IMG/VR virus record: IMGVR_UViG_3300042402_004628
Span: 6,831-70,830 of that record
Direction: 5' to 3' (one strand)
DNA: 64,000 nucleotides
Origin: a virus
The translations under genes were made by a program, and so were the position numbers. This document shows, piece after piece, positions 8,167 to 64,000 of the stretch (the first letter of the stretch is position 1; every line of letters starts with the position of its first letter). Under the pieces are notes generated by a model. It ran no database searches. It had not been told where the DNA came from and saw nothing but the letters and a program-made list of their open reading frames with translations.

Positions 8167-8197
8167 AAATCCTGTCATTTGACAGGATTTTTTTTTG
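8167..8197 (+). terminator. intrinsic terminator
   Basis: AATCCTGTCATTTGACAGGATT + T9. Confidence 0.65.
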
Positions 8198-9040
8198 CGC
8201 CAAAAATTAAACAAAAAAAAACAAATGAAAAACACAGAAACTTACAATGAACTCGTGCAGAAGATGCGCAAATTCTTTCTTGAAAGAGGATTCAAGGAAG
8301 TGCCAACACAATCAAGATTATCAATTCTCGCGGCTTGTGAGAACCCACACTCGGTTAAAACGTTCGAGTATGGTGGTTTGATCTGGCCGTTGCCACAGAC
8401 TGGACAGATGTGGCTTGAGTATGAGTTGTTAAAGAATCCAGAATGGAATGGCGTATTTTGCGTATCAACATCGTACAGAGAAGAAAAGAACCCAATCCCA
8501 GGAAGGCATGAGCTTATCTTCCCAATGTTTGAGTTTGAGTCAAAGGGAACCATGGAGGATTTAATCAAAATGGAAGGCGACCTTTTGGCTTATCTTGGAT
8601 TTGGTGATGAGATGGTTCAAGTTAAATACGATGATGTGTGTGAGGAATACGGTGGGGTACCAATTCTTGAGGATGAGCATGAATCCAGAATGTGGAATGA
8701 AAAGGGTAATGTTGTTTCATTACAACACTTCCCAATCAGAACAAATCCATTCTGGAACATGAAACACAATAACGATGGGATTTTCAACAAGGTTGATGTG
8801 ATTCTTTACGGACAGGAAACAATTGGATCCGCCGAGAGAAGCTGCGATGTTGAGAAGATGAGAGAAATGTTTTATGCTATTGAGAACGGTGCGTATTGCG
8901 CCAAGTTGTTCGAGTTATTCGGAAAAGAAAGGGTTGAGGCTGAGCTTGAGGAATTCTTGAAGCACAATTTCTTCCCAAGATATGGTGGTGGAATCGGGAT
9001 GACCAGAATGGCCAGAGCGTATGAGTTATTAAAGAAATAA
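8195..9040 (+). CDS. class II aminoacyl-tRNA synthetase catalytic-core-like / asparagine synthetase A (AsnA)-like protein
   Basis: motif-2-like 'STSYREEKNPIPGRHELIFPMFEFES' and motif-3-like 'GGGIGMTRMARAYELL' (compare AsnA 'GGGIGQSRL'); 281 aa with no anticodon-binding domain. Confidence 0.55.
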   Translation: MRQKLNKKKQMKNTETYNELVQKMRKFFLERGFKEVPTQSRLSILAACENPHSVKTFEYGGLIWPLPQTGQMWLEYELLKNPEWNGVFCVSTSYREEKNPIPGRHELIFPMFEFESKGTMEDLIKMEGDLLAYLGFGDEMVQVKYDDVCEEYGGVPILEDEHESRMWNEKGNVVSLQHFPIRTNPFWNMKHNNDGIFNKVDVILYGQETIGSAERSCDVEKMREMFYAIENGAYCAKLFELFGKERVEAELEEFLKHNFFPRYGGGIGMTRMARAYELLKK

Positions 9041-9070
9041 AAAAAGGGGCGAAAGCCCCTTTTTCTTTTT
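9041..9070. terminator. bidirectional terminator between convergent genes
   Basis: A-run GGGGCGAAAGCCCC T-run. Confidence 0.65.
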
Positions 9071-9074
9071 ATCT

Positions 9075-9692
9075 TTAATCTTCTCCGCCCCAATCTTTAT
9101 AATCACCAAATCTTTCGTTGTCTTCATAACCAGCGTTGTACGCTTCGATTTCTTCTGGTGTTAAATCGGTGATTCTCTCACCTTTGTAAGTTCCTTCTGG
9201 ATACTTATGTGGGCTCTTGGGTCTTCTGTAATATGAATCGGCGTGACCGCGATCATATGGTGATCCGTGCGAATCATCGTATTTCTCACTTCTACCCTCC
9301 TGAAATATTTCAGTTCTTGGTTCATCGTAATGATCCAACTTACCTATTGGGTAACGTTCGCCCGTCTCAGCGTTGTATTTAATGATTATCTTACCATCAT
9401 CACTATCACCTATAAAATAATGTACATTATCATCAGCTAAACTATAATATAATGGTCTGTCATAATCATCAAACTCTCTTTGAACAACTTTTTCACCACT
9501 TGCGGATTCGATCGCGGCTTTTTCGAAATCGAAATCACTTTCCATTTCCTCGCCACCTCTTTCGGAATTATAGTTAAAAATATCATCGGTGTATGCATTT
9601 GGATTATCCACCTTTGATAGATCAATTTCTTCATTAAGACCCATTATTTTGCGGAGTCTCGCAATTTCTTCATTTAATGTATTCTTTTTCAT
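9075..9692 (-). CDS. acidic hypothetical protein; shared N-terminal leader family (start moved to second ATG)
   Basis: 'MKKNTLNEEIARLRKIMGLNEE' leader; D/E/Y-rich body; ORF track start 9749 is an upstream extension. Confidence 0.55.
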   Translation of the reverse strand: MKKNTLNEEIARLRKIMGLNEEIDLSKVDNPNAYTDDIFNYNSERGGEEMESDFDFEKAAIESASGEKVVQREFDDYDRPLYYSLADDNVHYFIGDSDDGKIIIKYNAETGERYPIGKLDHYDEPRTEIFQEGRSEKYDDSHGSPYDRGHADSYYRRPKSPHKYPEGTYKGERITDLTPEEIEAYNAGYEDNERFGDYKDWGGED

Positions 9693-9741
9693 AGAAAAAA
9701 ACAATTTATTGATAAATAGTTTGTCAAATCCAAAAATATTT

Positions 9742-10056
9742 ATGAACATGGTAAAACTTTTTGAGAGAATACATATCCCATTGTGGATCGCAAAGGATAT
9801 GTTCTGGATGTTGGGTCAGGGCGAACTCTCATTGGCTTTCGCGATACCAACCATAATATTATCAACAATACTCATAACAGTAAAACAGGGGTCGGAAAGG
9901 TGGCTCGAGATGATGATGGCCTTTTGGTTATCAGCCAATACCTTATGGATGTCCCACGAGCTTTTTCATACGGACACAAAAGAAATTGCATTAACCTGTT
10001 TTTTATTTGGCATTTTAACAATTCCAATCTATTTATTAAAGATAAAAGAAGAATAA
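9742..10056 (+). CDS. small multi-pass membrane protein
   Basis: In-frame ATG at 9742 inside track ORF 9589-10056; three hydrophobic segments. Confidence 0.45.
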   Translation: MNMVKLFERIHIPLWIAKDMFWMLGQGELSLAFAIPTIILSTILITVKQGSERWLEMMMAFWLSANTLWMSHELFHTDTKEIALTCFLFGILTIPIYLLKIKEE

Positions 10057-10064
10057 AACTAGTT

Positions 10065-11639
10065 ATGAAACTAACTGAGGAAATAAAGAAAATGCAATCC
10101 ATGATGGGCATTATGTCCGAGGATGTGAAAATATACGCAAACGGTGTTGGATCTGAGGTGTTTAATGATAACGAACATTACGGAAAGGTTGATGATATTA
10201 ATTTAAATGACACCATAGCAAATGAACCGTTTAAGGATATGGAATACATGGATAAAAGTTCCAATGTCGATGATATGGTTCAAGCCTTGAAATCTGGTGA
10301 AGAGCTGCCACCAATACTTGTTATTCAACACCCCTTCGACCAATCAAAATATTTGGTTGTCGATGGAAACCATAGAAGATACGCATATGACCGCGCAGGT
10401 GCTGATAAGATTCCAGCCGTTGTGATTAAACCAGAGGATGTTTTGTTAATGCAATCCGATTGGGGTGATCCAGAGGAAAAGGCGATCAGATTATCTGATG
10501 TTATATCCGATCCAGAGTTGTTTGCTCGAGAAAACACAAGAATGTTAATTGACAAGTATTTTGTTAAACCAGACGGATCACATGAGTTCGAATTGAATGA
10601 AAATTTATATGAGGAAAAGAAAAAAGCCGATCGTTGTTTAAGAATAGCGAGAAGAAAATACAGCAAACCATCAGCATATAGATCTGGTGCAATCGTTCAA
10701 TGCAGAAGAGGAAAGATATGGAGAGGTTTGAAGGAAGAGGAGATCCAAATGATTGACAACGCACCAGAGGAAATGCAAGGTTTGATCGCCAAGGCTCACG
10801 ATGCTTTGACGTGGAAGAGGGGTCGAAAAGAATATGCTCCAGATTTTAATGAACTTCAAACATGGGTGGATGCTTATTTGGAGACTGACGGTGGAATGCA
10901 TGAAGCGAAGAAAACCGATTTCTCAAAGGAGAAAAAGAGCGGACTTCACGGATGGTTTTCAAGAAGAGGTGGTGGCGGAAGCAAAGGATGGGTTGATTGC
11001 AACACATGCAGAAAAGTTGACGGAAAGAAAAAATGCAAGGCTTGTGGAAGACAAAAGGGTGAGGTGAGAGCCAAGTACCCATCATGCAGACCAACACCAG
11101 CATCATGCGGAACACCAGGAAAGGGAAAATCTTGGGGCAAGACAAAGGAAGAGGGTTACAGCTTGAATGAAGCCAAGGAGATGAAGAGAGTTGCTTTGCT
11201 TTTCATTGTGATTGACAACGAAGCGTTGTTGTTCAAGAGAAGCGAAGACGAAACAACAAATCCAGGAAAATACGGAATGCTTGGTGGTGGAATTGAAAAG
11301 AATGAAACGCCAGAGGAAGCAATCGTGAGAGAGATCAGAGAAGAAGCTGGTGTTGAGTTGAAATCATTCAAACCACTGAAGAAATATATTTACAACAACG
11401 AGTGTGAATTAAACGTATTCTACACAAACGAATTTCCAATTGATGATGTTGTGCTTGACAAGAACGAACACACATCGTACAAATATTTCACGATGGAACA
11501 ATTGATAGATATGGATCCAAAGGATATGATTGGTTCCAACAAAGAAATCGCGAAGGATTACAACGAGATCGCAAACAAGAAAAAGAAATTGGAAGAAGAG
11601 ATAGAGAGAATAAAAGCTACGATGAAGATTCTTATTTAA
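10065..11639 (+). CDS. ParB/Srx-like nuclease domain + Cys-rich linker + Nudix hydrolase fusion; shared N-terminal leader family
   Basis: 'LVVDGNHRRYA' ParB-type motif; Nudix box 'GGGIEKNETPEEAIVREIREEAGV'; Cys cluster CNTC..CKAC..C..C; N-terminus 'MKLTEEIKKMQSMMGIMSE'; the track ORF start 9783 overlaps the membrane gene. Confidence 0.7.
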   Translation: MKLTEEIKKMQSMMGIMSEDVKIYANGVGSEVFNDNEHYGKVDDINLNDTIANEPFKDMEYMDKSSNVDDMVQALKSGEELPPILVIQHPFDQSKYLVVDGNHRRYAYDRAGADKIPAVVIKPEDVLLMQSDWGDPEEKAIRLSDVISDPELFARENTRMLIDKYFVKPDGSHEFELNENLYEEKKKADRCLRIARRKYSKPSAYRSGAIVQCRRGKIWRGLKEEEIQMIDNAPEEMQGLIAKAHDALTWKRGRKEYAPDFNELQTWVDAYLETDGGMHEAKKTDFSKEKKSGLHGWFSRRGGGGSKGWVDCNTCRKVDGKKKCKACGRQKGEVRAKYPSCRPTPASCGTPGKGKSWGKTKEEGYSLNEAKEMKRVALLFIVIDNEALLFKRSEDETTNPGKYGMLGGGIEKNETPEEAIVREIREEAGVELKSFKPLKKYIYNNECELNVFYTNEFPIDDVVLDKNEHTSYKYFTMEQLIDMDPKDMIGSNKEIAKDYNEIANKKKKLEEEIERIKATMKILI

Positions 11640-52050: not shown

Positions 52051-52387
52051 TTCGAATGTTGTTAAATTCTTCTCTTATTCTTCTGATTATTTCAGCATCG
52101 ATATTTCTCATTAGTTCTTCTGTCAATGCTCTGGTCAATTCTTTCTCAACATCTTCATCACATCTAACACGAGTTATTAATTTATCTTTCTCATAAAACC
52201 AAATAACCTTGAATCTTTCATATGAAAAGTTCGATTTGATTTTTGGATATCTAAACTCTTCGGTTTTGGGAAATGGTTCTTCAAGTTCATTGTTGAATAA
52301 AATAACATAATGGTCACCAACATCAATGATATCATCACACAATAGGTAGGTTCCATACTCATCATTTAATAACCATTCTTTAGACAT
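52031..52387 (-). CDS. hypothetical protein
   Basis: ORF track. Confidence 0.45.
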   Translation of the reverse strand: MSKEWLLNDEYGTYLLCDDIIDVGDHYVILFNNELEEPFPKTEEFRYPKIKSNFSYERFKVIWFYEKDKLITRVRCDEDVEKELTRALTEELMRNIDAEIIRRIREEFNNIRNENIQG

Positions 52388-52390
52388 AAA

Positions 52391-52756
52391 TTACTTCTTA
52401 GTGTCATCCTTTATGACAATACTGTAATCCAATTTATTTAGTTCATCAGATAATCTTTTCAAGAAAGTTTCTTCACCATCATCACCAGACAATAACCAAT
52501 CAACACGCTGTGCGTATATCTCAGCAATTCTCAAAATCTTTACAGCATCCCTGAATTTTTTGATGACCTCATCGGGATATTTGTGGTGGGTTCTCTCATC
52601 TGGGTATCTTTCAAAATACTCAACGCCATACCATCTAACCTTTTCTCTGAACTCCTCATCGGTTAAAGGTCTGCCACTTCGTTCTATTTCACTTTCAATG
52701 CTATCAGCAATGTTGCGAATCTTATATTGGTCGTAATCAAATGCTCCTCCACTCAT
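52391..52756 (-). CDS. hypothetical protein
   Basis: ORF track. Confidence 0.45.
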   Translation of the reverse strand: MSGGAFDYDQYKIRNIADSIESEIERSGRPLTDEEFREKVRWYGVEYFERYPDERTHHKYPDEVIKKFRDAVKILRIAEIYAQRVDWLLSGDDGEETFLKRLSDELNKLDYSIVIKDDTKK

Positions 52757-53307
52757 ATTTTATTTGTATAAATTTCTTTTATTGTACCATCTTTATAAAA
52801 AATTCTGCAATCAGGTTTTGTCCACCCATAGAGGTTAGCCATAACTTGCGCATACTGCTCAATGCTATCCAATTTAAGTCTACCAACAACTCTTGTTGAA
52901 CTATATTTATTTTCAACAATTGGTTCAACCAACCAAGTGGCGCCAGGATATTGGCTCTTCAAGTTTTTAATAGCGACATCTTTCTGAATGGTTCCTTTTT
53001 TACCATCGGTCAGCCATTGAGAAACCTCGTAACCATTCCATTTTGTGTTCATCTCCTCGATGTTGGTGGCATAAGATGCTGGGTACCAACGATCGCCACA
53101 GCAAGGGCAATCCATACCCTCATCACAACCATTCCAATAACAACCCAAGTCCTCGGCAATTCTTAGAGCCTCATCCTCCGAAACGGCCTCAATGTACAAT
53201 CTGTGGCATAGTTTATCATCGGTGATGAATGAACCACCACTGTTGTTCTGTGTAATTTCGTAAAATTCGGTTGATTTTGCCTTAATCGCTGATTTTTCGC
53301 TGACCAT
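52753..53307 (-). CDS. hypothetical Cys-cluster protein
   Basis: CYWNGCDEGMDCPCCGD. Confidence 0.45.
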   Translation of the reverse strand: MVSEKSAIKAKSTEFYEITQNNSGGSFITDDKLCHRLYIEAVSEDEALRIAEDLGCYWNGCDEGMDCPCCGDRWYPASYATNIEEMNTKWNGYEVSQWLTDGKKGTIQKDVAIKNLKSQYPGATWLVEPIVENKYSSTRVVGRLKLDSIEQYAQVMANLYGWTKPDCRIFYKDGTIKEIYTNKI

Positions 53308-53372
53308 AATTTTTATTTTAGGTCACAAATATAAAGAAATATTTTTAAATATCCAAATCTTATTGAAACATT

Positions 53373-53633
53373 TTAATCAAAATTATATTTGACTGTAACC
53401 AGATAATTTTTTTTGATATCTTCTGGTATAAAACACCAGACAATATTAATCATCTTGTGGCGCGAAAAAAATGTTGATGGTTTCTCATCTATTTGTTTCA
53501 ACGCATCGGAATTTTCTATAATATGTTTCTCATCGTTTGATATCCAAACGTATTGATCACCGATTCTATTTGGTTTTTTATCATCAACCAAAAGAACCAT
53601 CTTGTCAAGCATTATAAATCTCTCATTCAGCAT
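53373..53633 (-). CDS. hypothetical protein
   Basis: ORF track. Confidence 0.4.
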   Translation of the reverse strand: MLNERFIMLDKMVLLVDDKKPNRIGDQYVWISNDEKHIIENSDALKQIDEKPSTFFSRHKMINIVWCFIPEDIKKNYLVTVKYNFD

Positions 53634-53662
53634 AATCGTATTGAAAATCTAAGTAAAACAAT

Positions 53663-53911
53663 TCACCCCCTTGGGCTGTCCATTGGTTGGACAGCCACTA
53701 AATCTTGTGAAATAAATGTATGCGTAACACCAGTCGCATAAGGCATAAAGATCATGTCATAGTAAACGGAAACGTGTGTACCGAATGTTTCGTAATACCA
53801 AACTACTTTGTGGTTTACACCATCGATTGTGATGTACTCATCACCATCTTTTAATTGATCATCCGTAACAATATAATGATTGCCCTGGTACTTTATGAAC
53901 TCACCAATCAT
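53663..53911 (-). CDS. hypothetical protein
   Basis: ORF track. Confidence 0.4.
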   Translation of the reverse strand: MIGEFIKYQGNHYIVTDDQLKDGDEYITIDGVNHKVVWYYETFGTHVSVYYDMIFMPYATGVTHTFISQDLVAVQPMDSPRG

Positions 53912-54162
53912 ATTGAAATGTCATCATTCTTTGGGGATGCGAAAGTATAATTAGCTGCCATAGCAACTTCAAACTTAGTTAAAAGTTCTTTTATATCAGT
54001 CGCACCCCAACCCGTACCAACCGTTCTGTTTTTTGCGGTGTGTTCGATTGTGTATCGCACAACTCTATCGTGTGTTACACTAACGGACACTCGGAAGTCA
54101 GACCTATCAGTGTATTTCCTTTCAATCTCAGCAACTTTATCCGCTAGTTCAAGTAATGTCAT
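53908..54162 (-). CDS. hypothetical protein
   Basis: ATGA overlap chain. Confidence 0.4.
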   Translation of the reverse strand: MTLLELADKVAEIERKYTDRSDFRVSVSVTHDRVVRYTIEHTAKNRTVGTGWGATDIKELLTKFEVAMAANYTFASPKNDDISI

Positions 54163-54163
54163 A

Positions 54164-54427
54164 TCAGTCCCACTCTGTTATGTCCATATCTCTGTCGTTG
54201 ATCACACAATCTAATGCTCTTTCAATGTCCCAAAAATATGTAACGAAATTACCATCAATCATTGTAATTGTGTTCACACCAAGTGCAGTGTAAAACTTGT
54301 CTGGGTCAATATCGTTATCGACTAACATTGTGACGATCTCATCACTAGTGAAACCGACCTCATATTTTCTTTTGCTATTTTTAATTATTTCTTCTGCCGT
54401 CATATTATTTCTTATTTTTACGAGCAT
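54164..54427 (-). CDS. hypothetical protein
   Basis: ORF track. Confidence 0.4.
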   Translation of the reverse strand: MLVKIRNNMTAEEIIKNSKRKYEVGFTSDEIVTMLVDNDIDPDKFYTALGVNTITMIDGNFVTYFWDIERALDCVINDRDMDITEWD

Positions 54428-54481
54428 TCGGTAGCACCAGGAAAAAATACCATAGTATTACCAGTATCGTTAATGTATGCA

Positions 54482-55087
54482 TTAATTAATTTTTTCTATG
54501 TAACTTAAAACCTCTTCTTTAGTATTAACCCAATCCAATAGTTCGTAGTGTTCGCCTTTGGCGTTTATAAACTCGGCGTTGATTATTTGCAAACTATCTT
54601 CAACATTGTGAATGTTTCCGATGTATCGCTCACGTGCTTCATCGTCATATTCAAAAAGACAACCATCGGAATCTTCCTCAACTCTGATCGTGCTTCCCCA
54701 TTTAACAATGTTCCAGAAAGCGCCACCCTCGGATATTGATGTTGCAAAATCATCCACATCGAATGATTCAGCATCTTCTTTGATTGGCATGTCCCAAGTT
54801 TCTTTCAACATTGGTAGCAACTCGTTCCACCATTTAACATCACCATCAAAATTATCCTCAACGGTAACAACAACCTCGGCAATACCATGCTCTTCTTCAT
54901 CATCCCAGTATAATTCATCACCCTCGGTGGATATCCATTTCTTGGTGAAATCCTCTGAGAATCTGATTGAATCGAGTAGTTCTGTTAAAAATCTAACCCA
55001 CGCTGACTCATCCGATTCTAACTCCTCAAACAAATCGTAATCAGTAATTTTGTAAGTTAATGTGTAGGATACTTTAAACTTTTTCAT
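54482..55087 (-). CDS. acidic hypothetical protein
   Basis: 201 aa, D/E/W-rich. Confidence 0.5.
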   Translation of the reverse strand: MKKFKVSYTLTYKITDYDLFEELESDESAWVRFLTELLDSIRFSEDFTKKWISTEGDELYWDDEEEHGIAEVVVTVEDNFDGDVKWWNELLPMLKETWDMPIKEDAESFDVDDFATSISEGGAFWNIVKWGSTIRVEEDSDGCLFEYDDEARERYIGNIHNVEDSLQIINAEFINAKGEHYELLDWVNTKEEVLSYIEKIN

Positions 55088-55091
55088 TGTA

Positions 55092-56543
55092 TTAAATTTT
55101 AATCTTTATGTTTTCGATAATTAAATCACCAGTGTGAATACCGTTATGTTTATAAATTTCAACATGGTATCTGTTAGATGAGTTGACCTCAAATTCAAAT
55201 TGCATTGTTGGTCTACCGTCAGCGTTGAGTGTTCTACAACAACCCTTTTCACAAGACTCACCAGGCATTTTATGATCGGCTCCGAAGAAAGACATATAAC
55301 CCGCGAAGCTCTCAACCATATTCGGGTGTGCTGTTGTTAATTTATTTCGATTAACGTAAACCTCATAGACACCTTTAGGTATCTTCGTGAATGAAACGGT
55401 TAATACTAATTTAACTCTATTTGGCGCACCTAGCTGGCCACTTGTTGGCGTAACCTGTGTGACAGCATCTGTGATTTGACCATTAATTGGTATGCTGAAA
55501 TTATTGCTATGTAAAACATTGTTGTATGCTCTAGCCATCATCGGTTGATCAGCTTTTTCATATACCTCAACATCATCATAATCATAATCAAGTTTGTATA
55601 TTATCTTTATCACATCTTCCATTGTATAGGTAACTTTCTTACCATTCTCATCGAAGAAAACATAAGACCAGTCAGCTGATTTTAACATCTCCAATGTAAC
55701 TTTCTCCCCATTCGGAGAATTAGTCCATTGCTGCCATAGTCTATCAATGTTTGAGTGATGTGTCCAGAAAACTGGATCAAACCCAGCTGTCGGAACCCAA
55801 CCCATCAACCCTGTCTCACTAATTTTACCAGTGATTGGGTTGTTGAACAACTTACCAGTTTGTACATTACCAGCGCCGATGTAATCGTGCATCGCACCAT
55901 GTGGGGCATTGTTAATCTGCGAGTTAAACATTTCGTATGAGGTGTAACTCATTAATTTATCTGTCTCCAAAGCTCTTTGGATTTCACCTGCAATAGGATA
56001 ACCATAGTTCAAGCTATCAAATCTACAACGTTCATATAGGGATGATTTCGGATCTCTGAATTTTTCTTGTAAAAATTTGTCGTAGTCAAAATTATTTGTG
56101 TAGCCCCAATAAGGTAATGCGAAATCTTTATATCCAGACAATTTTCTAACTATCTTTTCTAAATGGTGAATGTATAATCTATGCCAAACCAAGAAATGAA
56201 TTTTTTCTTTACCACTTGGTGTATGTGTACAATTATCCCAAGCTTCTTTTAAATCGGCTGGGGTCTTATAGCTTGGGCACAGTGGGTTATATAAGATTGT
56301 GTCGGGAACCCAATGAATTGCACCTTGATAATACCAACTCAATGGGTTATCACAAGGCATATTACGCATAATTTTAAAGGCTTTGTCCATGGCTTCAACG
56401 TCCATTTGTGCCTCTGGTGTGTGAATTTCTTTTCGGAGATATCGTTTTCCAACAACATCTCCAACGCTTTCGGTTCTGTCTTTACATGATATTAGCCATA
56501 ATAGGCCAAACATCAAAATGAATAGTATTAATATTTTTTTCAT
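55092..56543 (-). CDS. tyrosinase / polyphenol oxidase (type-3 copper), predicted lipoprotein
   Basis: CuA 'HFLVWHRLYIHHLE', CuB 'HGAMHDYIG...DPVFWTHHSNIDRLWQQW'; N-terminal MKKILILFILMFGLLWLISC lipobox. Confidence 0.8.
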   Translation of the reverse strand: MKKILILFILMFGLLWLISCKDRTESVGDVVGKRYLRKEIHTPEAQMDVEAMDKAFKIMRNMPCDNPLSWYYQGAIHWVPDTILYNPLCPSYKTPADLKEAWDNCTHTPSGKEKIHFLVWHRLYIHHLEKIVRKLSGYKDFALPYWGYTNNFDYDKFLQEKFRDPKSSLYERCRFDSLNYGYPIAGEIQRALETDKLMSYTSYEMFNSQINNAPHGAMHDYIGAGNVQTGKLFNNPITGKISETGLMGWVPTAGFDPVFWTHHSNIDRLWQQWTNSPNGEKVTLEMLKSADWSYVFFDENGKKVTYTMEDVIKIIYKLDYDYDDVEVYEKADQPMMARAYNNVLHSNNFSIPINGQITDAVTQVTPTSGQLGAPNRVKLVLTVSFTKIPKGVYEVYVNRNKLTTAHPNMVESFAGYMSFFGADHKMPGESCEKGCCRTLNADGRPTMQFEFEVNSSNRYHVEIYKHNGIHTGDLIIENIKIKI

Positions 56544-56553
56544 AATTTTTAAT

Positions 56554-56754
56554 TTATTTTACAACATTAAGTAAAAAAAGTGTGATGTAAACCATAGATA
56601 CAACTGTCATAAATTTAATTGTCATGGCGATGATGGGTTTAGTACCGTTAACTTTAGCAACAAGCATGAAGGATCCTGTTGCATAGAACCAAATGATGGT
56701 TATGATCTTAGCAATGTCTAATATGTTCATAGTTTTAATTTTTAAATAAATCAC
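56554..56754 (-). CDS. small two-TM membrane protein
   Basis: ORF track 66 aa, hydrophobic. Confidence 0.4.
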   Translation of the reverse strand: MIYLKIKTMNILDIAKIITIIWFYATGSFMLVAKVNGTKPIIAMTIKFMTVVSMVYITLFLLNVVK

Positions 56755-57298
56755 TCAGGTATTGAAACATTTCAAAGTAAGGTTCGGTGGCATACCAAGT
56801 AAACCCCAACTTAGTCATGAATTCCTCATTTTCTTTTTTATACATCTCAAACATACGACTACCAGTCATCTTAGAGTATTGTACATTAGCGATACGATCA
56901 CATAATTTAACAAATACAGCGCCTTTGGTATTACGAATACCCTCATAGTATTTGTCATTGGCACGTTCCTTACGGTTCTTACCCTTTTCATTGGTTACAG
57001 CATAAATAATCTCAGCCGCTTCCTGACCCAAAATATCTTTAACATCGTTATATGACACACGACAATCTTCGATCAAATCGTGGCCCCAACAAGCAAGCAT
57101 ACATGCGTGTTTAGTCGAAACCTGTGTGGTTGGATTAACAACCACATCACCAGTAAAGTATTCTTTATCGTCTAAAAGATGGTTGTACTTCTCACCGACA
57201 TGGGCCACCATTCTCAAGTGGAACTCATACGGTAAGTATGTGTCGTACATGTGGTTTGTTTCATTGTGCTTCTCAATGCACCATTTTTTCTTATCCAT
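56735..57298 (-). CDS. HD-domain hydrolase, RelA/SpoT-type small alarmone hydrolase (SAH/Mesh1)-like
   Basis: 'AHVGEKYNH ... WGHDLIEDC' (H..H..HD-x-x-ED signature); ~187 aa; own promoter 57316-57347. Confidence 0.6.
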   Translation of the reverse strand: MDKKKWCIEKHNETNHMYDTYLPYEFHLRMVAHVGEKYNHLLDDKEYFTGDVVVNPTTQVSTKHACMLACWGHDLIEDCRVSYNDVKDILGQEAAEIIYAVTNEKGKNRKERANDKYYEGIRNTKGAVFVKLCDRIANVQYSKMTGSRMFEMYKKENEEFMTKLGFTWYATEPYFEMFQYLSDLFKN

Positions 57299-57315
57299 AA
57301 TTTCTCTTGTTGTTA

Positions 57316-57347
57316 CAAAGGTAAGAAAGAAAAATTTAATAACCAAA
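57316..57347 (-). promoter_or_regulatory. cassette-type promoter for the SAH-like gene
   Basis: TTTGGTTATTAAATTTTTCTTTCTTACCTTTG. Confidence 0.5.
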
Positions 57348-57397
57348 AAAAGGGGATAATTATTTCTAATTACCCCCCAGCACTTGACATGGCATGC

Positions 57398-57754
57398 TTA
57401 AGATTTTTTGTAATAGATCGTATCAGGTAAAGACCCAAACACGAACTTGGTTACGTCACATAACCACATTTTAATATCAAATGGTATACCCATGTAAGAC
57501 TCAACCTTATATGTGGCACCAGAACCATTCCCCTCATCATACAACCAACCATCCGAAATTTTTTTGAGCTCCTCAGCACCCTCAAATGGTTTATCGGACA
57601 ATGCTATCCAAATATACCACTCACCTTCACATAGCAAATCAAGCCAGGTGTCAGCACCAAGAACCATTTGTAGATCGGCTTTAGATCCTTCCCATTCTGG
57701 AAGATCAACAAACCAACCATTAAATTCTTTATCAAATCTTAATCTTTGTTTCAT
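57398..57754 (-). CDS. hypothetical protein
   Basis: ORF track. Confidence 0.45.
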   Translation of the reverse strand: MKQRLRFDKEFNGWFVDLPEWEGSKADLQMVLGADTWLDLLCEGEWYIWIALSDKPFEGAEELKKISDGWLYDEGNGSGATYKVESYMGIPFDIKMWLCDVTKFVFGSLPDTIYYKKS

Positions 57755-58137
57755 AAACTACATTTAAACATATAGTTAAATATCTCACAATTTGAATTTA
57801 GTTTAGATAAATCTGGAAAGGTCACATCACCTATATAGTTATTATCTATATGTGATATGTGTAACTCGGTGAACATGTGTGCATATTTTTCATATGTTTT
57901 TTTGCCACCAATGCACCAATCAATAACTTCGATATCTGGATTCCAAAGTCCCCTGGTATCGATTACAACTTCACGACCCTTCAATGGTGGTAACTCTAGT
58001 GATGTGTTGTAGCCAACGAGTAATCTACCACCCATGGTTTTTTCTTTGAAATGTTTGAAATCTTCGGAACTACGCCATAGCATTTTATTACCGATTCCTA
58101 TGAACCCGAGATTATTTACAGCAATTATAGCTTTCAT
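57751..58137 (-). CDS. folA: dihydrofolate reductase
   Basis: 'IIAVNNLGFIGIGNKMLW...DFKHFKEKTMGGRLLVGYNTSLELPPLKGREVVI...IGGKKTYE' matches the DHFR fold motifs. Confidence 0.8.
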   Translation of the reverse strand: MKAIIAVNNLGFIGIGNKMLWRSSEDFKHFKEKTMGGRLLVGYNTSLELPPLKGREVVIDTRGLWNPDIEVIDWCIGGKKTYEKYAHMFTELHISHIDNNYIGDVTFPDLSKLNSNCEIFNYMFKCSL

Positions 58138-58448
58138 TTTGATAATAAATCAATTAGTATGTAAGACAATTTATAACCAGCGAATGCACCTAAAGCTGAT
58201 GGTATTGGAAACACAATTAACTTACCAAGTGATGTAACATACTTCGGTCGGTTAACAATTCTACCCATATAAAAGTAGTAGGTTATATAACCAAGAAGAA
58301 CCGCTAGATCTGTTTTGGTTGCGATAAACACAACCAACATAGCACCGATAAAACCAAACGTAAAATTGTCTCTGGACTCGGTAAAAACCTCACCAGGAGT
58401 TGCATCTTTATATTCTTTAACTATTTGTTTTATCGTTGTCTTGCCCAT
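58134..58448 (-). CDS. membrane protein
   Basis: Three hydrophobic segments. Confidence 0.45.
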   Translation of the reverse strand: MGKTTIKQIVKEYKDATPGEVFTESRDNFTFGFIGAMLVVFIATKTDLAVLLGYITYYFYMGRIVNRPKYVTSLGKLIVFPIPSALGAFAGYKLSYILIDLLSK

Positions 58449-58704
58449 TTTGTTTTATTTTCTCAAGATATTCAATCATAGTTTCGGCGTCTTTTGGGTT
58501 AATGATTATTTCATCAAATGCGCCGTAATTTGACTGTCTACCGAATATATAATCAATAGCATATAAAATCCTATCACGCAATGATTTACGTTTCAAGTGT
58601 GGCTCGATGTATAGCGTATTATCTTCATCATCATACCAAATGGCAAATTGATGTTCGAGCGATTCACATTCACACACCAAGATTTCTCTATTAATCTTTT
58701 CCAT
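58417..58704 (-). CDS. hypothetical protein
   Basis: ORF track. Confidence 0.4.
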   Translation of the reverse strand: MEKINREILVCECESLEHQFAIWYDDEDNTLYIEPHLKRKSLRDRILYAIDYIFGRQSNYGAFDEIIINPKDAETMIEYLEKIKQNGQDNDKTNS

Positions 58705-58921
58705 CTTCTTTTTTAATATCCTCTCGAGTTAATTCTTTTTCAGCTTGGTGCATGAAGATAATCTCTTTTGTTTGTTCATCAACTGTGCAAGCGGCAATTG
58801 GTTTATCAACTCGGTAATGATATTCTTCTCCTAGCATACCAACTTCTCCGTTGACAACTTCAAAGGCATCAAACTCCTCTGGTAGGGTGTTGAGCCACGT
58901 TTTTAATTCTCCTAAATTCAT
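58691..58921 (-). CDS. hypothetical protein
   Basis: ORF track. Confidence 0.4.
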   Translation of the reverse strand: MNLGELKTWLNTLPEEFDAFEVVNGEVGMLGEEYHYRVDKPIAACTVDEQTKEIIFMHQAEKELTREDIKKEDGKD

Positions 58922-59943
58922 ATATCGTAAGGTGTTGTACTGAATGTTATCTTCTCGATACTCAAACAGTTTGTGTTTATTATTTTTTCGATAAACATAA
59001 TAAAATCAGAAACAATATCAAATGATTTTATTTGTTTGTTCAGGTATAGGTTGTAAACCCCAATTTCTTGAAGAACATCTGATTTATTGATTATTAAATC
59101 AGTCACACCGTTGATGTTAATTGCTTTGATCATATCGTCCAAGTCCAACCAATCAACTTGCCTCGGTCTACCAGTTGTTGCACCAAACTCATTACCAACT
59201 TCTCTTATCTTCACAAACAATGGGTCTGCACCTTCAAAGTTTTTGGCACCAACATATGTGCGATAAGCTTTTGCAACGCCGTACACTCTGTCAATTTTTT
59301 GTGCTGGTATTCCATTAAGGATGGCCCCACCAATTGTGCAATGTGATGATGTAACATATGGGTAATCACCCCAATCAATATCCAACTCAAAACCCTGAGC
59401 CCCTTCGCAAAGTATACTACAACCGTCTTGCCCATTAAATAATCCGTATGTATCAACAACCATGTCGGCTAACATAGGAACATCAACAGCTCTAAGACCT
59501 TTTCGATAATACTTATCTCGGTAAGCTGGGCCATTCCCAGTTTTAGTCGTACCGATTTTACTATCCAAACTATCTTCGTGTAGATGTTGCTCGGTGATGA
59601 TGTGAACACGTTTATCAATCAATAAGTTCTCACGAACTTTAAATCCAGCTAATTCGAGTTCATCAATTTCTTGAATAAGTTTGTCTGGGTTGACCACACA
59701 ACCAAGTCCAATAATTGATTTGATTCCATACAATACACCAACTGGTATGAAATGTGTTACATATTTTTCACCATTGTGATATATCGTGTGACCAGCATTA
59801 CCACCACCATTGTAGCGCATAACATAATCATACTCATCTGGCTTCTTAGCCAGAGCGTGGGCAACCTTGCCCTTTCCAGTGTCACCCGCTTGCAGGTCAA
59901 CAATTACATCAGCTTTGCGTATCATAGTGCGTGGTTTTCCCAA
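58918..59943 (-). CDS. purA: adenylosuccinate synthetase (short form)
   Basis: 'GDTGKGK', 'RYNGGGNAGHT', 'GTTKTGNGPAYRDK', 'EGAQGFELDIDWGDYPYVTSS', 'GNEFGATTGRPRQVDWLD' align to PurA motifs; the real start may be the internal MIRKADV. Confidence 0.85.
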   Translation of the reverse strand: MGKPRTMIRKADVIVDLQAGDTGKGKVAHALAKKPDEYDYVMRYNGGGNAGHTIYHNGEKYVTHFIPVGVLYGIKSIIGLGCVVNPDKLIQEIDELELAGFKVRENLLIDKRVHIITEQHLHEDSLDSKIGTTKTGNGPAYRDKYYRKGLRAVDVPMLADMVVDTYGLFNGQDGCSILCEGAQGFELDIDWGDYPYVTSSHCTIGGAILNGIPAQKIDRVYGVAKAYRTYVGAKNFEGADPLFVKIREVGNEFGATTGRPRQVDWLDLDDMIKAININGVTDLIINKSDVLQEIGVYNLYLNKQIKSFDIVSDFIMFIEKIINTNCLSIEKITFSTTPYDI

Positions 59944-60380
59944 TAACCGTTAGGGTAATCAATATTAACATAAAGCATATAAGTTGTGTAACCTTTGCGC
60001 TCATCTTTTTTATAGTGATTCCAGGTAGCATCTTCATCCATAAATGGTCGCAAACCAATAGCTTTGAATTTCTCAACAAACCACTTACAAAGTTCATGGT
60101 GAATGACCATATCTTTTGTCTCGAGTTCAAAACGAACACAAACCCATGGTGTTGTCATATAACCATCGGATCCCCCACCATAACTCAAAAGTTCTGGATA
60201 TAAAACGATACCGATTTTTGGTTTCCATTCGTCATTTTTAGAGTCTGGGTTAATCAAAAAAGGTGTTTTAACTTCCAAGTAATGTTCATCAACCTGTTTA
60301 AAATTTGGGTCGTGTAATTGTAATCGATCAATAATTTGGTCGATTTCTTTGTCGATTTGTTCTCTTATATTTACTAACAT
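59922..60380 (-). CDS. hypothetical protein
   Basis: Start placed at MLVNIREQ, after the flotillin-gene terminator hairpin. Confidence 0.4.
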   Translation of the reverse strand: MLVNIREQIDKEIDQIIDRLQLHDPNFKQVDEHYLEVKTPFLINPDSKNDEWKPKIGIVLYPELLSYGGGSDGYMTTPWVCVRFELETKDMVIHHELCKWFVEKFKAIGLRPFMDEDATWNHYKKDERKGYTTYMLYVNIDYPNGYWENHAL

Positions 60381-60432
60381 AATTTTATTTAAAATAGGAT
60401 TGGGTTGTTTCCAACCCAATCCATTGTTTTAA

Positions 60433-62295
60433 TTATTTTACCTCGGTTACAGTACCCTGTTCAGATTCTTTTTTCTCTTGGATTTGCTTTAACAATTCCA
60501 TTCCAAGTAAGCCATTGATTGGGCTACTATCACCACTACCTGTGATAAGAATCTCAGGGATGATTTTGATACCATTTGTACCAATCATTTCGGTAACTTT
60601 AAGTTTACCAAAGTTTTCAACACCCATAGCTTTAACTTGCTTTTCGTAAGCCTCAGCAGTTGATTTACCAATCGCGGAAATCTTAGATGCTTCAGCATCA
60701 CCAGTCAATTTAATCTGCGTAGCATCAGCTTCAGCGTTCAATTTCTTAGCTTCAGCTTGAGCGGCAGCTTTTAATTTCAAGGCTTGTGCTTCACCCTCAG
60801 ATTTCTTAACAGCGGCCTCAGCTTCACGTTGAGAAATCTCAACCGATTGTTGTGCTGACACCATTTGTCCTTGCATATCGGCAAGTGCTTTAGCCGATTC
60901 AAGCGTCTTACGTTTATCTTGAGCTTTGCGTTGAGTGTCAAATGTTACCTCTTCTTCTTGTGCAATCTTACGGTCAGTAAGAGTTTTCATCAGAGAGTCT
61001 GGTGGTGTGATGTCACCAATAAGCGTATCAACCGCATGCACGTTGTATTCTTCAAGAACCGTGCTGATCTTATCTTTAGCAGCATTCTGTCTTTGTTGAC
61101 GAGTTGATAAGAACGCAATCACATCAGAATCTTGTGCCGAGTTACGGAAATAGTTACCGATGGTTGGTTCAAGAACTTGTGACACAAGGTTCTGCATTGA
61201 GCCGAAACGAGCAATTACTTTAGGCGCTTCGGTTGATGGGATGTGGATAATCTGTGAAACATCCAAATTGAATGGGAAACCGTCTTGTGAACGTACTGTG
61301 ATGGTACTCAAGTTCTTATCAAGATTGTGTGATTCATTACGAGCATTTGCCCAGTTAAGAACCAAGTTTGTTGTTGGTACTATCTCAATCTTCTGTGTAT
61401 AAGGATTGATTGCGTATTTACCTGGATCCAATGGGGTTGCCCACACACCTTTCTGACCTTTTTTAACGATGTTACCGTGTTTAAAATCACTTCCAGTGGT
61501 GTCTTCACCATCTTCACCAACATAAGAGATAACAACACCAACATGACCGATAGGAATGGATGTCATTTCTTTCTTCTCAACTTCGATTGCCCATGGGTTC
61601 AATGAATAAGAACCAGCTTGAATAACTTGGATTTGTAAACCCCTTTGTCCACCATTAGCCAAAAACTTATCAAAGTCTTGGAAATTATTGTGACCGCTAA
61701 CCACAGAACCAGCGATTGAACCAATCTCAAGTGGTGTACCATCAAGTGCTGTAACAACGCCAACCATACCATCTTCAATGTATGTGATGTCAGCGAGGAA
61801 TATCTCGAATAAATGGGTATTAACACGATACACACCGTTGTTTAAATAACCAACTTGTTTACCACGTTGTCCACCTGTTGATAAAAACGCTCTAGCATCT
61901 TGGTAATCATCACAATCAACGTGTCGAGCCAAGATAGCACCCTTTGGTAACTGTGCGCCATCTTTAGCTGATAACAAGCCGATCTTACCTTTAGGTATTG
62001 TTGTTAAAGGGGCTTGTTCGATTTCGAATTGCCATATCCAGTAAGCCCAATATAAACCTGGGGCTAATGTGTCGGCCTGAAAGCCTGGTTCATTGTTTAA
62101 GGCGATAATCTTACCATCGGGTAATTGTTTATTGGGGCCAAAAAGTACAAATTTTTTGGTCACCAAACCAATTTTGTCTTCAGGTATGATAACCATACCA
62201 AAGAACACTCGTAGTACGAACTTGTAGAATACTACCATGAGGATCGGGATTAAAACCCATGCGTAACCCAATACGCTAGTTAATTGTTCTGTCAT
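60433..62295 (-). CDS. flotillin-like SPFH/band-7 protein (YqiK-type) with EA-rich C-terminal coiled coil
   Basis: N-terminal TM, SPFH-like core, 'AEAAVKKSEGEAQALKLKAAAQAEAKKLNAEADA' flotillin-type repeats. Confidence 0.7.
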   Translation of the reverse strand: MTEQLTSVLGYAWVLIPILMVVFYKFVLRVFFGMVIIPEDKIGLVTKKFVLFGPNKQLPDGKIIALNNEPGFQADTLAPGLYWAYWIWQFEIEQAPLTTIPKGKIGLLSAKDGAQLPKGAILARHVDCDDYQDARAFLSTGGQRGKQVGYLNNGVYRVNTHLFEIFLADITYIEDGMVGVVTALDGTPLEIGSIAGSVVSGHNNFQDFDKFLANGGQRGLQIQVIQAGSYSLNPWAIEVEKKEMTSIPIGHVGVVISYVGEDGEDTTGSDFKHGNIVKKGQKGVWATPLDPGKYAINPYTQKIEIVPTTNLVLNWANARNESHNLDKNLSTITVRSQDGFPFNLDVSQIIHIPSTEAPKVIARFGSMQNLVSQVLEPTIGNYFRNSAQDSDVIAFLSTRQQRQNAAKDKISTVLEEYNVHAVDTLIGDITPPDSLMKTLTDRKIAQEEEVTFDTQRKAQDKRKTLESAKALADMQGQMVSAQQSVEISQREAEAAVKKSEGEAQALKLKAAAQAEAKKLNAEADATQIKLTGDAEASKISAIGKSTAEAYEKQVKAMGVENFGKLKVTEMIGTNGIKIIPEILITGSGDSSPINGLLGMELLKQIQEKKESEQGTVTEVK

Positions 62296-62364
62296 TTTTT
62301 TATTTTTTTAAATGTTGTACAAAGGTAAGTTAAAATTTTTAAATCACCAAATTTTTTTATAAAA

Positions 62365-62619
62365 TTATTTAATGGTTTTGTTGAGTGAATCAATCATATG
62401 CATCGCATCATTCCAAGTAACTTCTTTTGAAAGCTGGATTGTGTAATCAGCGGCATTTTCAACATTTACGTTGATGGCTGGTACTCCGTGTGAGTACCTA
62501 CCATCAAGTTCGTATGCTACAACTTTTTTTGGTGATAGAATAAAATAAATCCCAACCGATAGGACTGATGCTACAACTAGCATCAAAAAGTATAACCAAG
62601 ATTTTTCCATTGTGCTCAT
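62365..62619 (-). CDS. small single-TM protein (possible NfeD/YqiJ-like flotillin partner)
   Basis: N-terminal TM; immediately upstream of the flotillin gene. Confidence 0.4.
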   Translation of the reverse strand: MSTMEKSWLYFLMLVVASVLSVGIYFILSPKKVVAYELDGRYSHGVPAINVNVENAADYTIQLSKEVTWNDAMHMIDSLNKTIK

Positions 62620-62620
62620 C

Positions 62621-64000
62621 TTATAATTTATTTAAACGTTCACGAATTTCAGTTAATGTTGTTTGGTTGTGGAACTTACCATCTTCATAAATGGTTTGTA
62701 AGATTCCAGTTCCCTCTTGCTCCCAAGTACATTGAGTTAATACCTCATGGTCTTCAGTTACACAGATCAAACCTTTCAAAGATTTCTTGGTACCATCATC
62801 AGTTACTGGATCTTTGTAGATGTTGTAACCAACCTTTCCTTTTGGAATTAAAGCACTTCCCAAAAGTCCATCGGCTGAAGGTATAGTATCAAACTCCTCA
62901 ACTTCAAACCAAGCACCTTTGGCTGCGAAACCTAAAGTGTCACGGGTATTCATTTGGTAAGTAAATGAACCAACACCCAATACAATGTTTGTTGCCGCAA
63001 ATCCTTTTGCTTCCAATCTCTTGTAGATTTCAATTTGACGGTCTAATGTGATTGAATCTCCGTAGATTGCTCCGATGTGTGGGTCAAGAACCTTGTAACC
63101 TTGTTCATTGATTGTTCCACCAAAGATGTCCCAAAGTAATTCTATTACCCCGACTTCAGCAGGTGTTTTATACTCACCAGGCGCATCGGATAATTGTTCT
63201 TCTCTACCACAAATAATATCAACTGGATCACCAGAGTCAGGACGAATTACTAACTTACCGTCACGAGCCATGATAGCTTCTTTGTTTGCTGGTAAGTATT
63301 CAGTAATCAACTTCCACAAATCAAATGTGTCAGATACAATTGATAGGATTCCATTCGGAAAATCTACCAACCAATCGGCAATCATTTGTTGTTCACCAAC
63401 AGTAAAGATTTTTGTTGTTGATACAGAGTGTTCAGATGCGTTAACCGAGTTAATGCACACTTCGTCTTTTGGTTCATTATAGAAATAACGAGCCCCTGGA
63501 ATACAGATGATTGTATCTGAACCACGGAACGATGTTGCATGTCCCATTCCACTAGTCAACATATCCCATGGTGATAAACCACGTGCTGAAAAGTCATGAC
63601 ACATAAAAGGAATTAACCAAGCTGTTGATGGGTCGGTTTTCATAACCCACTCAACAACATTACGTTTGTATTGCAATGCTATTGTTGCTGATGTGGATGG
63701 TTTCCAAGCCAACGAACTGATAATTGTTTCCAAATACAATGTCAACCACGCAAACCCATCGACAGTATTGATGAAAGTCATGTGTGGAACATTTGGGTTT
63801 GTTTCAATACCTTCAGGTAGTGCTTTAACACGAATAGGTAAGTAACCTAATCTGTGTAGTGCAACGAAGTGTGATGCATCGTAATCCATTCCAAGATACA
63901 ATGACATATCTTTTCCAAAGTTAACCGCAACTTCCTCGGGTAAACTGAAAAAGTTCTCTTGAAATTCATCATGTAACCATTTAACAACCAATTGTTGTCC
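62621..64000 (-). CDS. nadV: nicotinamide phosphoribosyltransferase (NAMPT/NadV), 5' end beyond the window
   Basis: 'IRPDSGDPVD', 'GSDTI', C-terminal 'IYKDPVTDDGTKKSLKGLICV' match NAMPT; the frame stays open to position 64000 (the track start 63991 is a TTG artefact). Confidence 0.8.
   Translation of the reverse strand, partial: GQQLVVKWLHDEFQENFFSLPEEVAVNFGKDMSLYLGMDYDASHFVALHRLGYLPIRVKALPEGIETNPNVPHMTFINTVDGFAWLTLYLETIISSLAWKPSTSATIALQYKRNVVEWVMKTDPSTAWLIPFMCHDFSARGLSPWDMLTSGMGHATSFRGSDTIICIPGARYFYNEPKDEVCINSVNASEHSVSTTKIFTVGEQQMIADWLVDFPNGILSIVSDTFDLWKLITEYLPANKEAIMARDGKLVIRPDSGDPVDIICGREEQLSDAPGEYKTPAEVGVIELLWDIFGGTINEQGYKVLDPHIGAIYGDSITLDRQIEIYKRLEAKGFAATNIVLGVGSFTYQMNTRDTLGFAAKGAWFEVEEFDTIPSADGLLGSALIPKGKVGYNIYKDPVTDDGTKKSLKGLICVTEDHEVLTQCTWEQEGTGILQTIYEDGKFHNQTTLTEIRERLNKL

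Follow-up and report, generated by a model that had tools for sequence, protein, structure and literature searches.

A gene cut off by the edge of an uncultured phage sequence probably belongs to a two-gene NARP1 operon

A gene of the NAMPT superfamily runs off the end of the phage DNA studied here (the window, a stretch of 64,000 nucleotides), which raises the question of which enzyme it encodes, what partner lies beyond the edge and by which route the two would rebuild NAD+. An earlier note, made from the letters of the window, had read the gene as phage NadV in an NAD-salvage module and suggested that its partner, an NMNAT or NMNAT-Nudix enzyme, may be found just upstream, beyond base 64000. 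That is the arrangement of NARP2, as in Vibrio phage KVP40 (NadV Nampt plus NatV NMNAT-Nudix). In NARP1, Adps pyrophosphorylates ADP-ribose (ADPR) and Namat, also of the NAMPT superfamily, joins the resulting ADPR-PP to nicotinamide, giving NAD+ (Osterman et al.).

The open reading frame lies on the minus strand, with a TAA stop and 459 uninterrupted codons inside the window; its N-terminus is lost at the edge, base 64000 (Table 1). Homology of this fragment to the NAMPT superfamily is far above chance (NCBIfam NF006629, 391 bits, E 6e-117; PDB 9W5X, E 4e-103; Pfam NAPRTase, E 2e-29), which bears out the superfamily assignment in the earlier note, and both peptides quoted there, IRPDSGDPVD and IYKDPVTDDGTKKSLKG, were located in the translation. 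The second of these forms a conserved block that follows a 19-residue insertion relative to the Namat of SPbetaL1, located in the loop behind the clamp helix described below. His241, whose column was invariant across an 11-sequence alignment, falls in the conserved A-x-E-H-S segment, where the Nampt core has its catalytic histidine. The strand was not given in the note, and its wording “upstream, beyond 64000” fits a gene on the minus strand.

To cross the edge, the 84-aa protein encoded next to the gene was searched for exact matches, and these led to several metagenome contigs. Among them is L002, a 298,717-bp JGI contig that matches window positions 52365–64000 at 100% over 11,636 bp. It is available as JGI 3300042475 Ga0453895_0000002 or NCBI JBFDGW010002670.1. 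The complete ORF on L002 encodes 509 aa and starts at window-equivalent position 64150, and the part of the gene inside the window is 100% identical to L002 positions 8620–9999. The first 50 codons, which encode Asp11, Tyr13 and also the beta1-beta2 loop containing Lys38-Tyr39, were read from L002. The same 509-aa protein is in the database as P0121 and occurs on 12 contigs, the longest of 298,837 bp, and thousands of database relatives exist, the closest 120 of which are 75–100% identical, many of them sitting on contigs of 100–400 kb. The DNA comes from an uncultured phage whose genome is about 299 kb long. The window is AT-rich (G+C 33–40%), and its only nucleotide matches to cultured phages were to the Tenacibaculum jumbo phages PTm1 and PTm5 (75% over 340 bp).

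Table 1. Positions of the features discussed, in window coordinates unless marked as L002.
Feature	Position	Strand	Basis or remark
Putative Namat-type (NAMPT-superfamily) gene, residues 51–509 and TAA stop (62621–62623)	62621..64000	-	Homology, identity to L002
Segment IRPDSGDPVD with Arg303 and Asp305	63218..63247	-	Counterparts of SPbetaL1 Arg306 and Asp308
IYKDPVTDDGTKKSLKG, conserved family block near C-terminus	62771..62821	-	Alignment
His241 codon	63428..63430	-	Aligned with His245 of SPbetaL1 Namat in A-x-E-H-S segment
Clamp helix (SCH) GSFTYQMNTRD, residues 394–404	62939..62971	-	Alignment and motif of PMC12774641
Predicted membrane-anchored protein, 84 aa	62365..62619	-	ATG 1 nt past the Namat stop
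ParB_N-Nudix fusion	9783–11639	Opposite to Namat-type gene	About 51 kb away; generic MutT/NudI-like Nudix box
First 50 codons of putative Namat-type gene	Window-equivalent 64001–64150 = L002 8470–8619	-	Outside window, extrapolated
Putative Adps-type Prs homologue, 323 aa	Window-equivalent 64170–65141 = L002 7479–8450	-	Outside window, extrapolated

Family membership leaves the subtype to be settled by finer features. The NF006629 model was rejected as a discriminator (window protein 421 bits, SPbetaL1 Namat 594, KVP40 NadV 508); Namat and NadV score alike, hence the family name is uninformative on subtype. With Namat and Nampt structures within about 1 Å of each other on superposition, fold searching would likewise fail to tell them apart. 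The best solved structures for the full 509-aa protein were 9W5X/9W5W (382 bits, E 4e-113), which are SPbetaL1 Namat (PMC12774641), with lower scores for Xanthomonas Nampt (153 bits) and human NAMPT (122 bits; fragment search). The third-best structural match was PDB 9KE8/9KEO, for which a literature search gave nothing relevant.

A “selectivity clamp” helix specific to Namat and absent from Nampt has the consensus GS-X-Phi-X-Phi-X-Phi-TRD (PMC12774641). The segment GSFTYQMNTRD conforms to it, with Phi1 = T, Phi2 = Q and Phi3 = N, and is identical to the SPbetaL1 clamp at 10 of 11 residues. At the same site in the same alignment, the NARP2 Nampts compared (KVP40, QD01, Aeromonas phage 25, CcrBL10 and Serratia phage BF) carry GGGLLQQLDRD, GGGLLQMVNRD or similar. 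Furthermore, every residue of SPbetaL1 Namat that contacts nicotinamide or the ribose-phosphate of NMN has an identical counterpart in the alignment (SPbetaL1/here: D13/D11, Y15/Y13, F189/F187, S190/S188, R192/R190, D215/D212, A242/A238, catalytic His/H241, R306/R303, D308/D305, G360/G364, D361/D365, G390/G394, S391/S395, R399/R403). Arg306 and Asp308 of SPbetaL1 bind ribose, and the R306A and R306G mutations kill activity (PMC12774641; Osterman preprint).

An extra segment past RPDSGDP is present here and in all NARP1-linked sequences and is missing from NARP2 Nampts. The 509-aa protein is 45–46% identical to the Namats of SPbetaL1, FADO and ICP1, against 28–30% for NARP2 Nampts. In a neighbour-joining (NJ) tree of 18 sequences, the NARP2 Nampts split from the Namats plus the window protein in 200/200 bootstraps; the window protein grouped with Lbo-JY46, PTm1 and metagenome relatives, again in 200/200, inside the Adps-associated Namats. 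By clamp signature and clade, the window gene classes as Namat-type and not as a KVP40-type NadV.

On L002, the Namat-type gene is directly preceded on the same strand by another gene, with a gap of 19 bp between the two. In Pfam, the 323-aa product of this upstream gene weakly matches two families, Pribosyltran and the ribose-phosphate pyrophosphokinase N-terminal domain; its top solved structures are Prs enzymes (at 45 bits), and a PHROG hit of 203 bits is to family 619, “ribose-phosphate pyrophosphokinase”. The Prs model TIGR01251 scores the protein at 91.5 bits, under the cutoff of 113, where E. coli Prs scores 423, SPbetaL1 Adps 106, FADO Adps 96.5 and known or NARP1-linked Adps proteins 96–131. 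On a phage Adps HMM, made from eight NARP1-operon proteins (SPbetaL1, FADO, phiSUSP1, ICP1, Bas61, VCM, Quinn and Jobypre), the protein reaches 187 bits, compared with 117 for E. coli Prs and 123–262 for the references in leave-one-out runs. An NJ tree split Prs from Adps plus the 323-aa protein in 300/300 bootstraps, with a Prs outgroup of three sequences, two of them partial.

Adps-type motifs are also present in this protein, namely DDICDGGRTF (identical in phiSUSP1, Bas61 and VCM), DPHSDV and K-x-R-N-x-x-T-G-x-I. In the last of these, Lys203 aligns with K162 of SPbetaL1 Adps (S-K-H-R-N-I-E-T-G-K-I here, H-K-Q-R-N-F-H-T-G-E-I there), the mutation of which stops NAD+ production (Osterman et al.). 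The order Adps then Namat is as in SPbetaL1, FADO, ICP1, Bas61, Quinn, VCM and Jobypre, and 97% of the Adps clade have a Namat homologue within ten genes (Osterman et al.). The upstream protein is thus classed, on its scores, motifs and tree position, as a divergent Prs homologue grouping with Adps (ADP-ribose pyrophosphokinase), not as an NMNAT.

A divergent Prs homologue directly ahead of a NAMPT homologue is the published NARP1 architecture, which argues for NARP1 and not NARP2. We therefore think it probable that this uncultured phage carries a two-gene NARP1 operon and that the gene truncated at the window edge is its second member, a reading supported by gene order, homology, conservation of catalytic residues, the Namat clamp motif and the clade placement of both proteins. 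From the characterised homologues of SPbetaL1, Bas63 and FADO we infer both enzyme activities, a preference for ADPR-PP over PRPP and a role in counter-defence. The Adps-type enzyme would convert ADPR and ATP to ADPR-PP and AMP, and the Namat-type enzyme would then combine ADPR-PP with nicotinamide, releasing PPi and forming NAD+ directly. NAD+ would in this way be rebuilt from both products of host NADase effectors, allowing infection to proceed in the face of Thoeris, DSR1/2, SIR2-HerA, SEFIR and similar systems. The NAD-rebuilding module of the earlier note thus stands, with Namat in place of NadV as the subtype indicated by signature and clade. The position foreseen for the partner was also right, and its predicted identity as NMNAT or NMNAT-Nudix gives way to an Adps-type Prs homologue. 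The note had in addition listed Namat/Adps-type genes among the targets of a search past base 64000, and genes of both types are present.

Of the genome of about 299 kb, searches for companion genes covered 72.6 kb, made up of the window and a further 8.6 kb. With NadM-Nudix, NadD and NadR as NMNAT queries, phmmer against all ORFs of at least 40 aa in the 72.6 kb gave a best E-value of 0.085, and none of the called genes carried an NMNAT label in the precomputed Pfam annotation, in agreement with the earlier note, which had seen no NMNAT motif in the window. The extension past the edge that it proposed produced an Adps-type gene and, over 72.6 kb, no NMNAT. Within the NARP2 Nampt clade, 94% have an NMNAT in the same genome (Osterman et al.). 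A search for a Macro-domain phosphatase (Adpp), with the Quinn Macro protein as query, gave a best E-value of 0.35 over the 72.6 kb and nothing between or near the gene pair. The small ORFs neighbouring the pair had no Pfam or PHROG match, and RyR domains were covered by Pfam scans of the immediate neighbours together with the precomputed Pfam labels of called genes.

The ParB_N-Nudix fusion, which had been put forward as a possible functional companion, showed no link to the pair: its Nudix box is generic, it lies far off on the opposite strand, and a companion role is unsupported. NARP1 works without any Nudix enzyme. A PfkB kinase 5 kb upstream was considered as a ribokinase feeding Prs and rejected, its nearest relative being heptose-7-phosphate kinase.

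Our reconstruction is largely in agreement with the NARP1 of SPbetaL1 (Osterman et al. 2024), a two-gene, same-strand system with Adps followed by Namat. The Namat-type proteins are 45% identical and share every NAD+-contacting core residue and the GS-F-T-Y-Q-x-N-T-R-D clamp helix, and the Adps-type protein keeps the catalytic lysine equivalent to K162 as well as the clade motifs. Differences are the Met in place of Tyr396 (clamp position 7), Lys38-Tyr39 in place of Arg40 (clamp loop), the 19-residue insertion past the clamp helix, a longer segment past RPDSGDP, and an Adps-type protein of 323 aa against 272 aa, the two being about 30% identical. The nearest cultured relatives of the window phage infect Tenacibaculum and Leptolyngbya. 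Leptolyngbya phage Lbo-JY46 is the closest sequenced phage, and its NARP1 (annotated PncB and PrsA) shows 70–78% identity for the Namat-type and 43–49% for the Adps-type protein; its gene order differs however (Namat, two unknown genes, Adps), and its clamp position 7 is Tyr.

With the NARP2 of KVP40 the window gene shares the superfamily fold, nicotinamide and phosphoribosyl chemistry, and the restoration of NAD+ from nicotinamide as the end result. It differs in identity (29%), in the clamp region (GGGLLQQLDRD in KVP40), in the segment past RPDSGDP that KVP40 lacks, in clade (200/200), and in its partner, a Prs homologue where KVP40 has an NMNAT. NARP1-AP of the Vibrio phages Gary and Quinn (Adps, Macro-domain phosphatase Adpp and Namat) has the same Adps and Namat core, but here no Macro-domain gene was found between or near the two genes or within the 72.6 kb, and, following the published NARP1-AP logic, ADPR-1''-phosphate produced by aRES systems would be beyond the reach of this module. 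Tenacibaculum phage PTm1 encodes a nicotinamide phosphoribosyl transferase (ORF-130) that is 62–66% identical and in the same subclade (200/200); it carries a degenerate clamp motif, GSFTLGYQTRD, in a genome without detectable Adps or NMNAT.

PTm1 is one of two relatives that keep a Namat-like gene without a nearby Adps. Neither Adps nor NMNAT was found in its complete genome, and on the other, a 400-kb contig, there was no Adps within 6 kb of the Namat-like gene. Gene arrangement in the subclade is variable, with one relative showing the order Adps, 152-aa gene, Namat. A Namat-like enzyme of this clade can evidently persist alone, presumably using host PRPP, and for this reason a Nampt-like mode survives as a minority reading. 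Under it, the upstream gene would encode a genuine PRPP synthetase, and the window gene would encode a NadV-type Nampt making NMN, which an NMNAT elsewhere in the phage genome, or host NadD/NadR, would convert to NAD+ by a logic like that of NARP2. Several points are compatible with such salvage: NF006629 fails to split Namat from NadV, Namat enzymes also accept PRPP and retain PRPP-dependent NMN synthesis in vitro (PMC12774641; Osterman preprint), Met at clamp position 7 means that one adenine-stacking aromatic is lost, PTm1 has a related enzyme without Adps, and about 226 kb of the genome lie outside the 72.6 kb searched for NMNAT. We nevertheless regard it as unlikely. The protein falls in the Namat clade and not that of KVP40 (200/200; 45% against 29% identity) and possesses the Namat clamp motif, its partner scores as Adps and unlike Prs, and the NMNAT search of the 72.6 kb found none. 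No phage has been seen with NARP1 and NARP2 together, and 97% of Adps-clade genes are near a Namat (Osterman et al.). The nearby PfkB kinase, closest to heptose-7-phosphate kinase, also supplies no step from ribose to R5P.

Two further explanations were considered. The pair could carry out the Adps and Namat reactions mainly to maintain the NAD+ pool through the long infection of a giant phage, for example serving NAD-consuming phage enzymes, and not be aimed at NADase defences. The neighbourhood is rich in auxiliary metabolism genes, the literature on freshwater jumbo phages classes NAD modules as auxiliary metabolic genes (PMC13573597), and NARP2 genes raise NAD+ in the absence of any defence system (Osterman et al.). 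We consider this very unlikely as the main role, given that ADPR-PP of NARP1 was seen only where a NADase defence supplied ADPR (Osterman et al.) and that NADase effectors release exactly the compounds on which the pathway draws. Sequence data do not separate counter-defence from upkeep. That the window gene is a non-functional remnant has hardly any probability at all: nothing specific suggests it beyond the truncated ORF in the window, and this truncation is an effect of the window edge, the 509-aa ORF being intact on L002 with every catalytic residue conserved, the identical protein occurring on 12 contigs and close relatives numbering in the thousands.

Returning to the two-gene NARP1 reading, the clamp itself shows a variant. 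Clamp positions 3 and 7 are “most often” aromatic, stacking on the adenine ring (PMC12774641); here position 3 is Phe396, an aromatic residue, and position 7 is Met400, where Tyr or Phe is usual and where SPbetaL1 has Tyr396, which stacks on adenine. The motif GS[FY]TYQMNTRD was found in 120/120 of the closest database relatives, and this presence of Met at position 7 in all 120 indicates a subfamily trait and not damage. The substitution could make the preference for ADPR-PP weaker or different. Single clamp mutants of SPbetaL1 Namat, Y396 included, lose just 1.3–1.7-fold in activity (PMC12774641).

The clamp loop (beta1-beta2) has Arg, Lys or Tyr as its third residue plus a stacking residue (PMC12774641). 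Lys38-Tyr39, aligned with Arg40 of SPbetaL1, is of the Lys-plus-next-residue type described for Bas63, and KVP40 NadV has Lys-Phe at the same column, hence this feature is non-discriminating in sequence. The stretch that follows the clamp helix differs in length between close relatives, from 12 to 36 residues. A speculative extension, to which we give a low probability, is that the Met-for-Tyr variant marks a large environmental subfamily whose donor specificity may have shifted, for example to genuine acceptance of both PRPP and ADPR-PP or to a different ADPR derivative. If true, it would also account for PTm1-like relatives without Adps or NMNAT. The conserved Met at position 7 could serve for testing the published selectivity-clamp model.

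The NARP1 pathway was known before and is common among phages (4.3% of sequenced phages; Osterman et al.), and the window pair adds one more member. The novelty is modest and consists of NARP1 in an abundant clade of uncultured jumbo phages with a conserved Met clamp variant, which extends the system to phages of about 300 kb related to those of Tenacibaculum and Leptolyngbya. JGI/NCBI-type labels for the pair are “nicotinamide phosphoribosyltransferase” and “ribose-phosphate pyrophosphokinase”; these are misleading, and the NARP1 reading would correct the annotation of both genes. A NARP1 counter-defence module would also imply a host lineage with NAD-depleting immunity.

Scans for sigma-70 promoters and terminators around the operon gave counts equal to shuffle expectation and were uninformative. 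The 84-aa protein encoded next to the Namat-type gene, with no match in Pfam or PHROG, is possibly co-translated with it. Adjacency of Namat and SPFH genes was seen among close relatives only, and a synteny of the two shared with PTm1 was rejected because ORF-132 of PTm1 lacks homology with the SPFH protein. Auxiliary metabolism genes are abundant nearby, including those for PurA-like, DHFR, methylglyoxal synthase and ferritin-like proteins.

The Adps-like protein, a Prs homologue encoded upstream of the Namat gene, and the Namat-like protein both match one PHROG, phrog_12872, a single profile of 547 positions. The former matched at 70 bits over profile positions 11–276 and the latter at 190 bits, with its best stretch at positions 375–456, which suggests that Adps-Namat fusion proteins may occur in some phages. 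A Namat-clade protein 62–66% identical to that of the window is also encoded by the Tenacibaculum jumbo phage PTm1 (AP019524.1), where the gene is "solo", as no Adps or NMNAT was detectable in the whole 224.7-kb genome. The signature of the selectivity-clamp helix, GSFTYQMNTRD in the window protein, is degenerate in PTm1 (GSFTLGYQTRD).

Downstream, the Namat gene is followed by an SPFH/Band-7 gene, and the small ORF lying between them has its ATG 1 nt past the Namat stop. Namat-SPFH adjacency was also observed on a 400-kb contig carrying another Namat-like gene, with an SPFH protein 79% identical to that of the window; the PTm1 protein at the equivalent position showed no homology to the SPFH protein.

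Features of the window and of L002, the metagenome contig extending past the window edge
Feature	Location	Strand	Length (aa)
Class II aminoacyl-tRNA-synthetase-like core (PF00152)	window 8195-9040	+	271-281
Fused ParB_N domain, Cys-rich segment and MutT/NudI-like Nudix domain	window 9783-11639	+	524 or 618
Tyrosinase (PF00264) domain protein	window 55092-56543	-	483
DHFR	window 57751-58137
Adenylosuccinate-synthetase-like, short	window 58918-59943	-	335-341
SPFH/Band-7 protein	window 60433-62295	-	620
Predicted membrane-anchored ORF	window 62365-62619	-	84
Two HAD_SAK_2 phosphatase-like genes in tandem, and PfkB kinase	L002 285-1467 and 2684-3451 (outside window)
SmpB and methylglyoxal synthase, phage-encoded	L002 4219-4653 and 5174-5608 (outside window; about 67.0-68.4 kb in window-equivalent coordinates)

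The adenylosuccinate-synthetase-like gene adjoins the DHFR gene, and its product scored under every cutoff of the PurA models (273 bits vs 402) as well as that of the PurZ model (123 vs 300). These scores mark it as a divergent phage PurA-like enzyme rather than, by the NCBIfam models, a PurZ. On the 400-kb contig, a distant homologue (24% identity, tblastn) was found upstream of the Namat-like gene, adjoined by a NADAR-domain gene.

Elsewhere in the window, the start of the ParB_N-Nudix fusion differs between gene callers, hence the two lengths; its Cys-rich segment includes CNTCRKVDGKKKCKACGRQKG..., and no specific substrate signature was recognised in the fusion. The aminoacyl-tRNA-synthetase-like protein bears a weak resemblance to EpmA/PoxA, the ligase that attaches lysine to EF-P, and the tyrosinase domain is unusual in phage. 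No tRNA or tmRNA genes were found within the 64-kb window. Beyond its edge, the SmpB (166 bits) and methylglyoxal synthase (157 bits) products on L002 exceed the TIGR00086 and NF003559 cutoffs, respectively, and the PfkB kinase is nearest to heptose-7-phosphate kinase (RfaE domain I).
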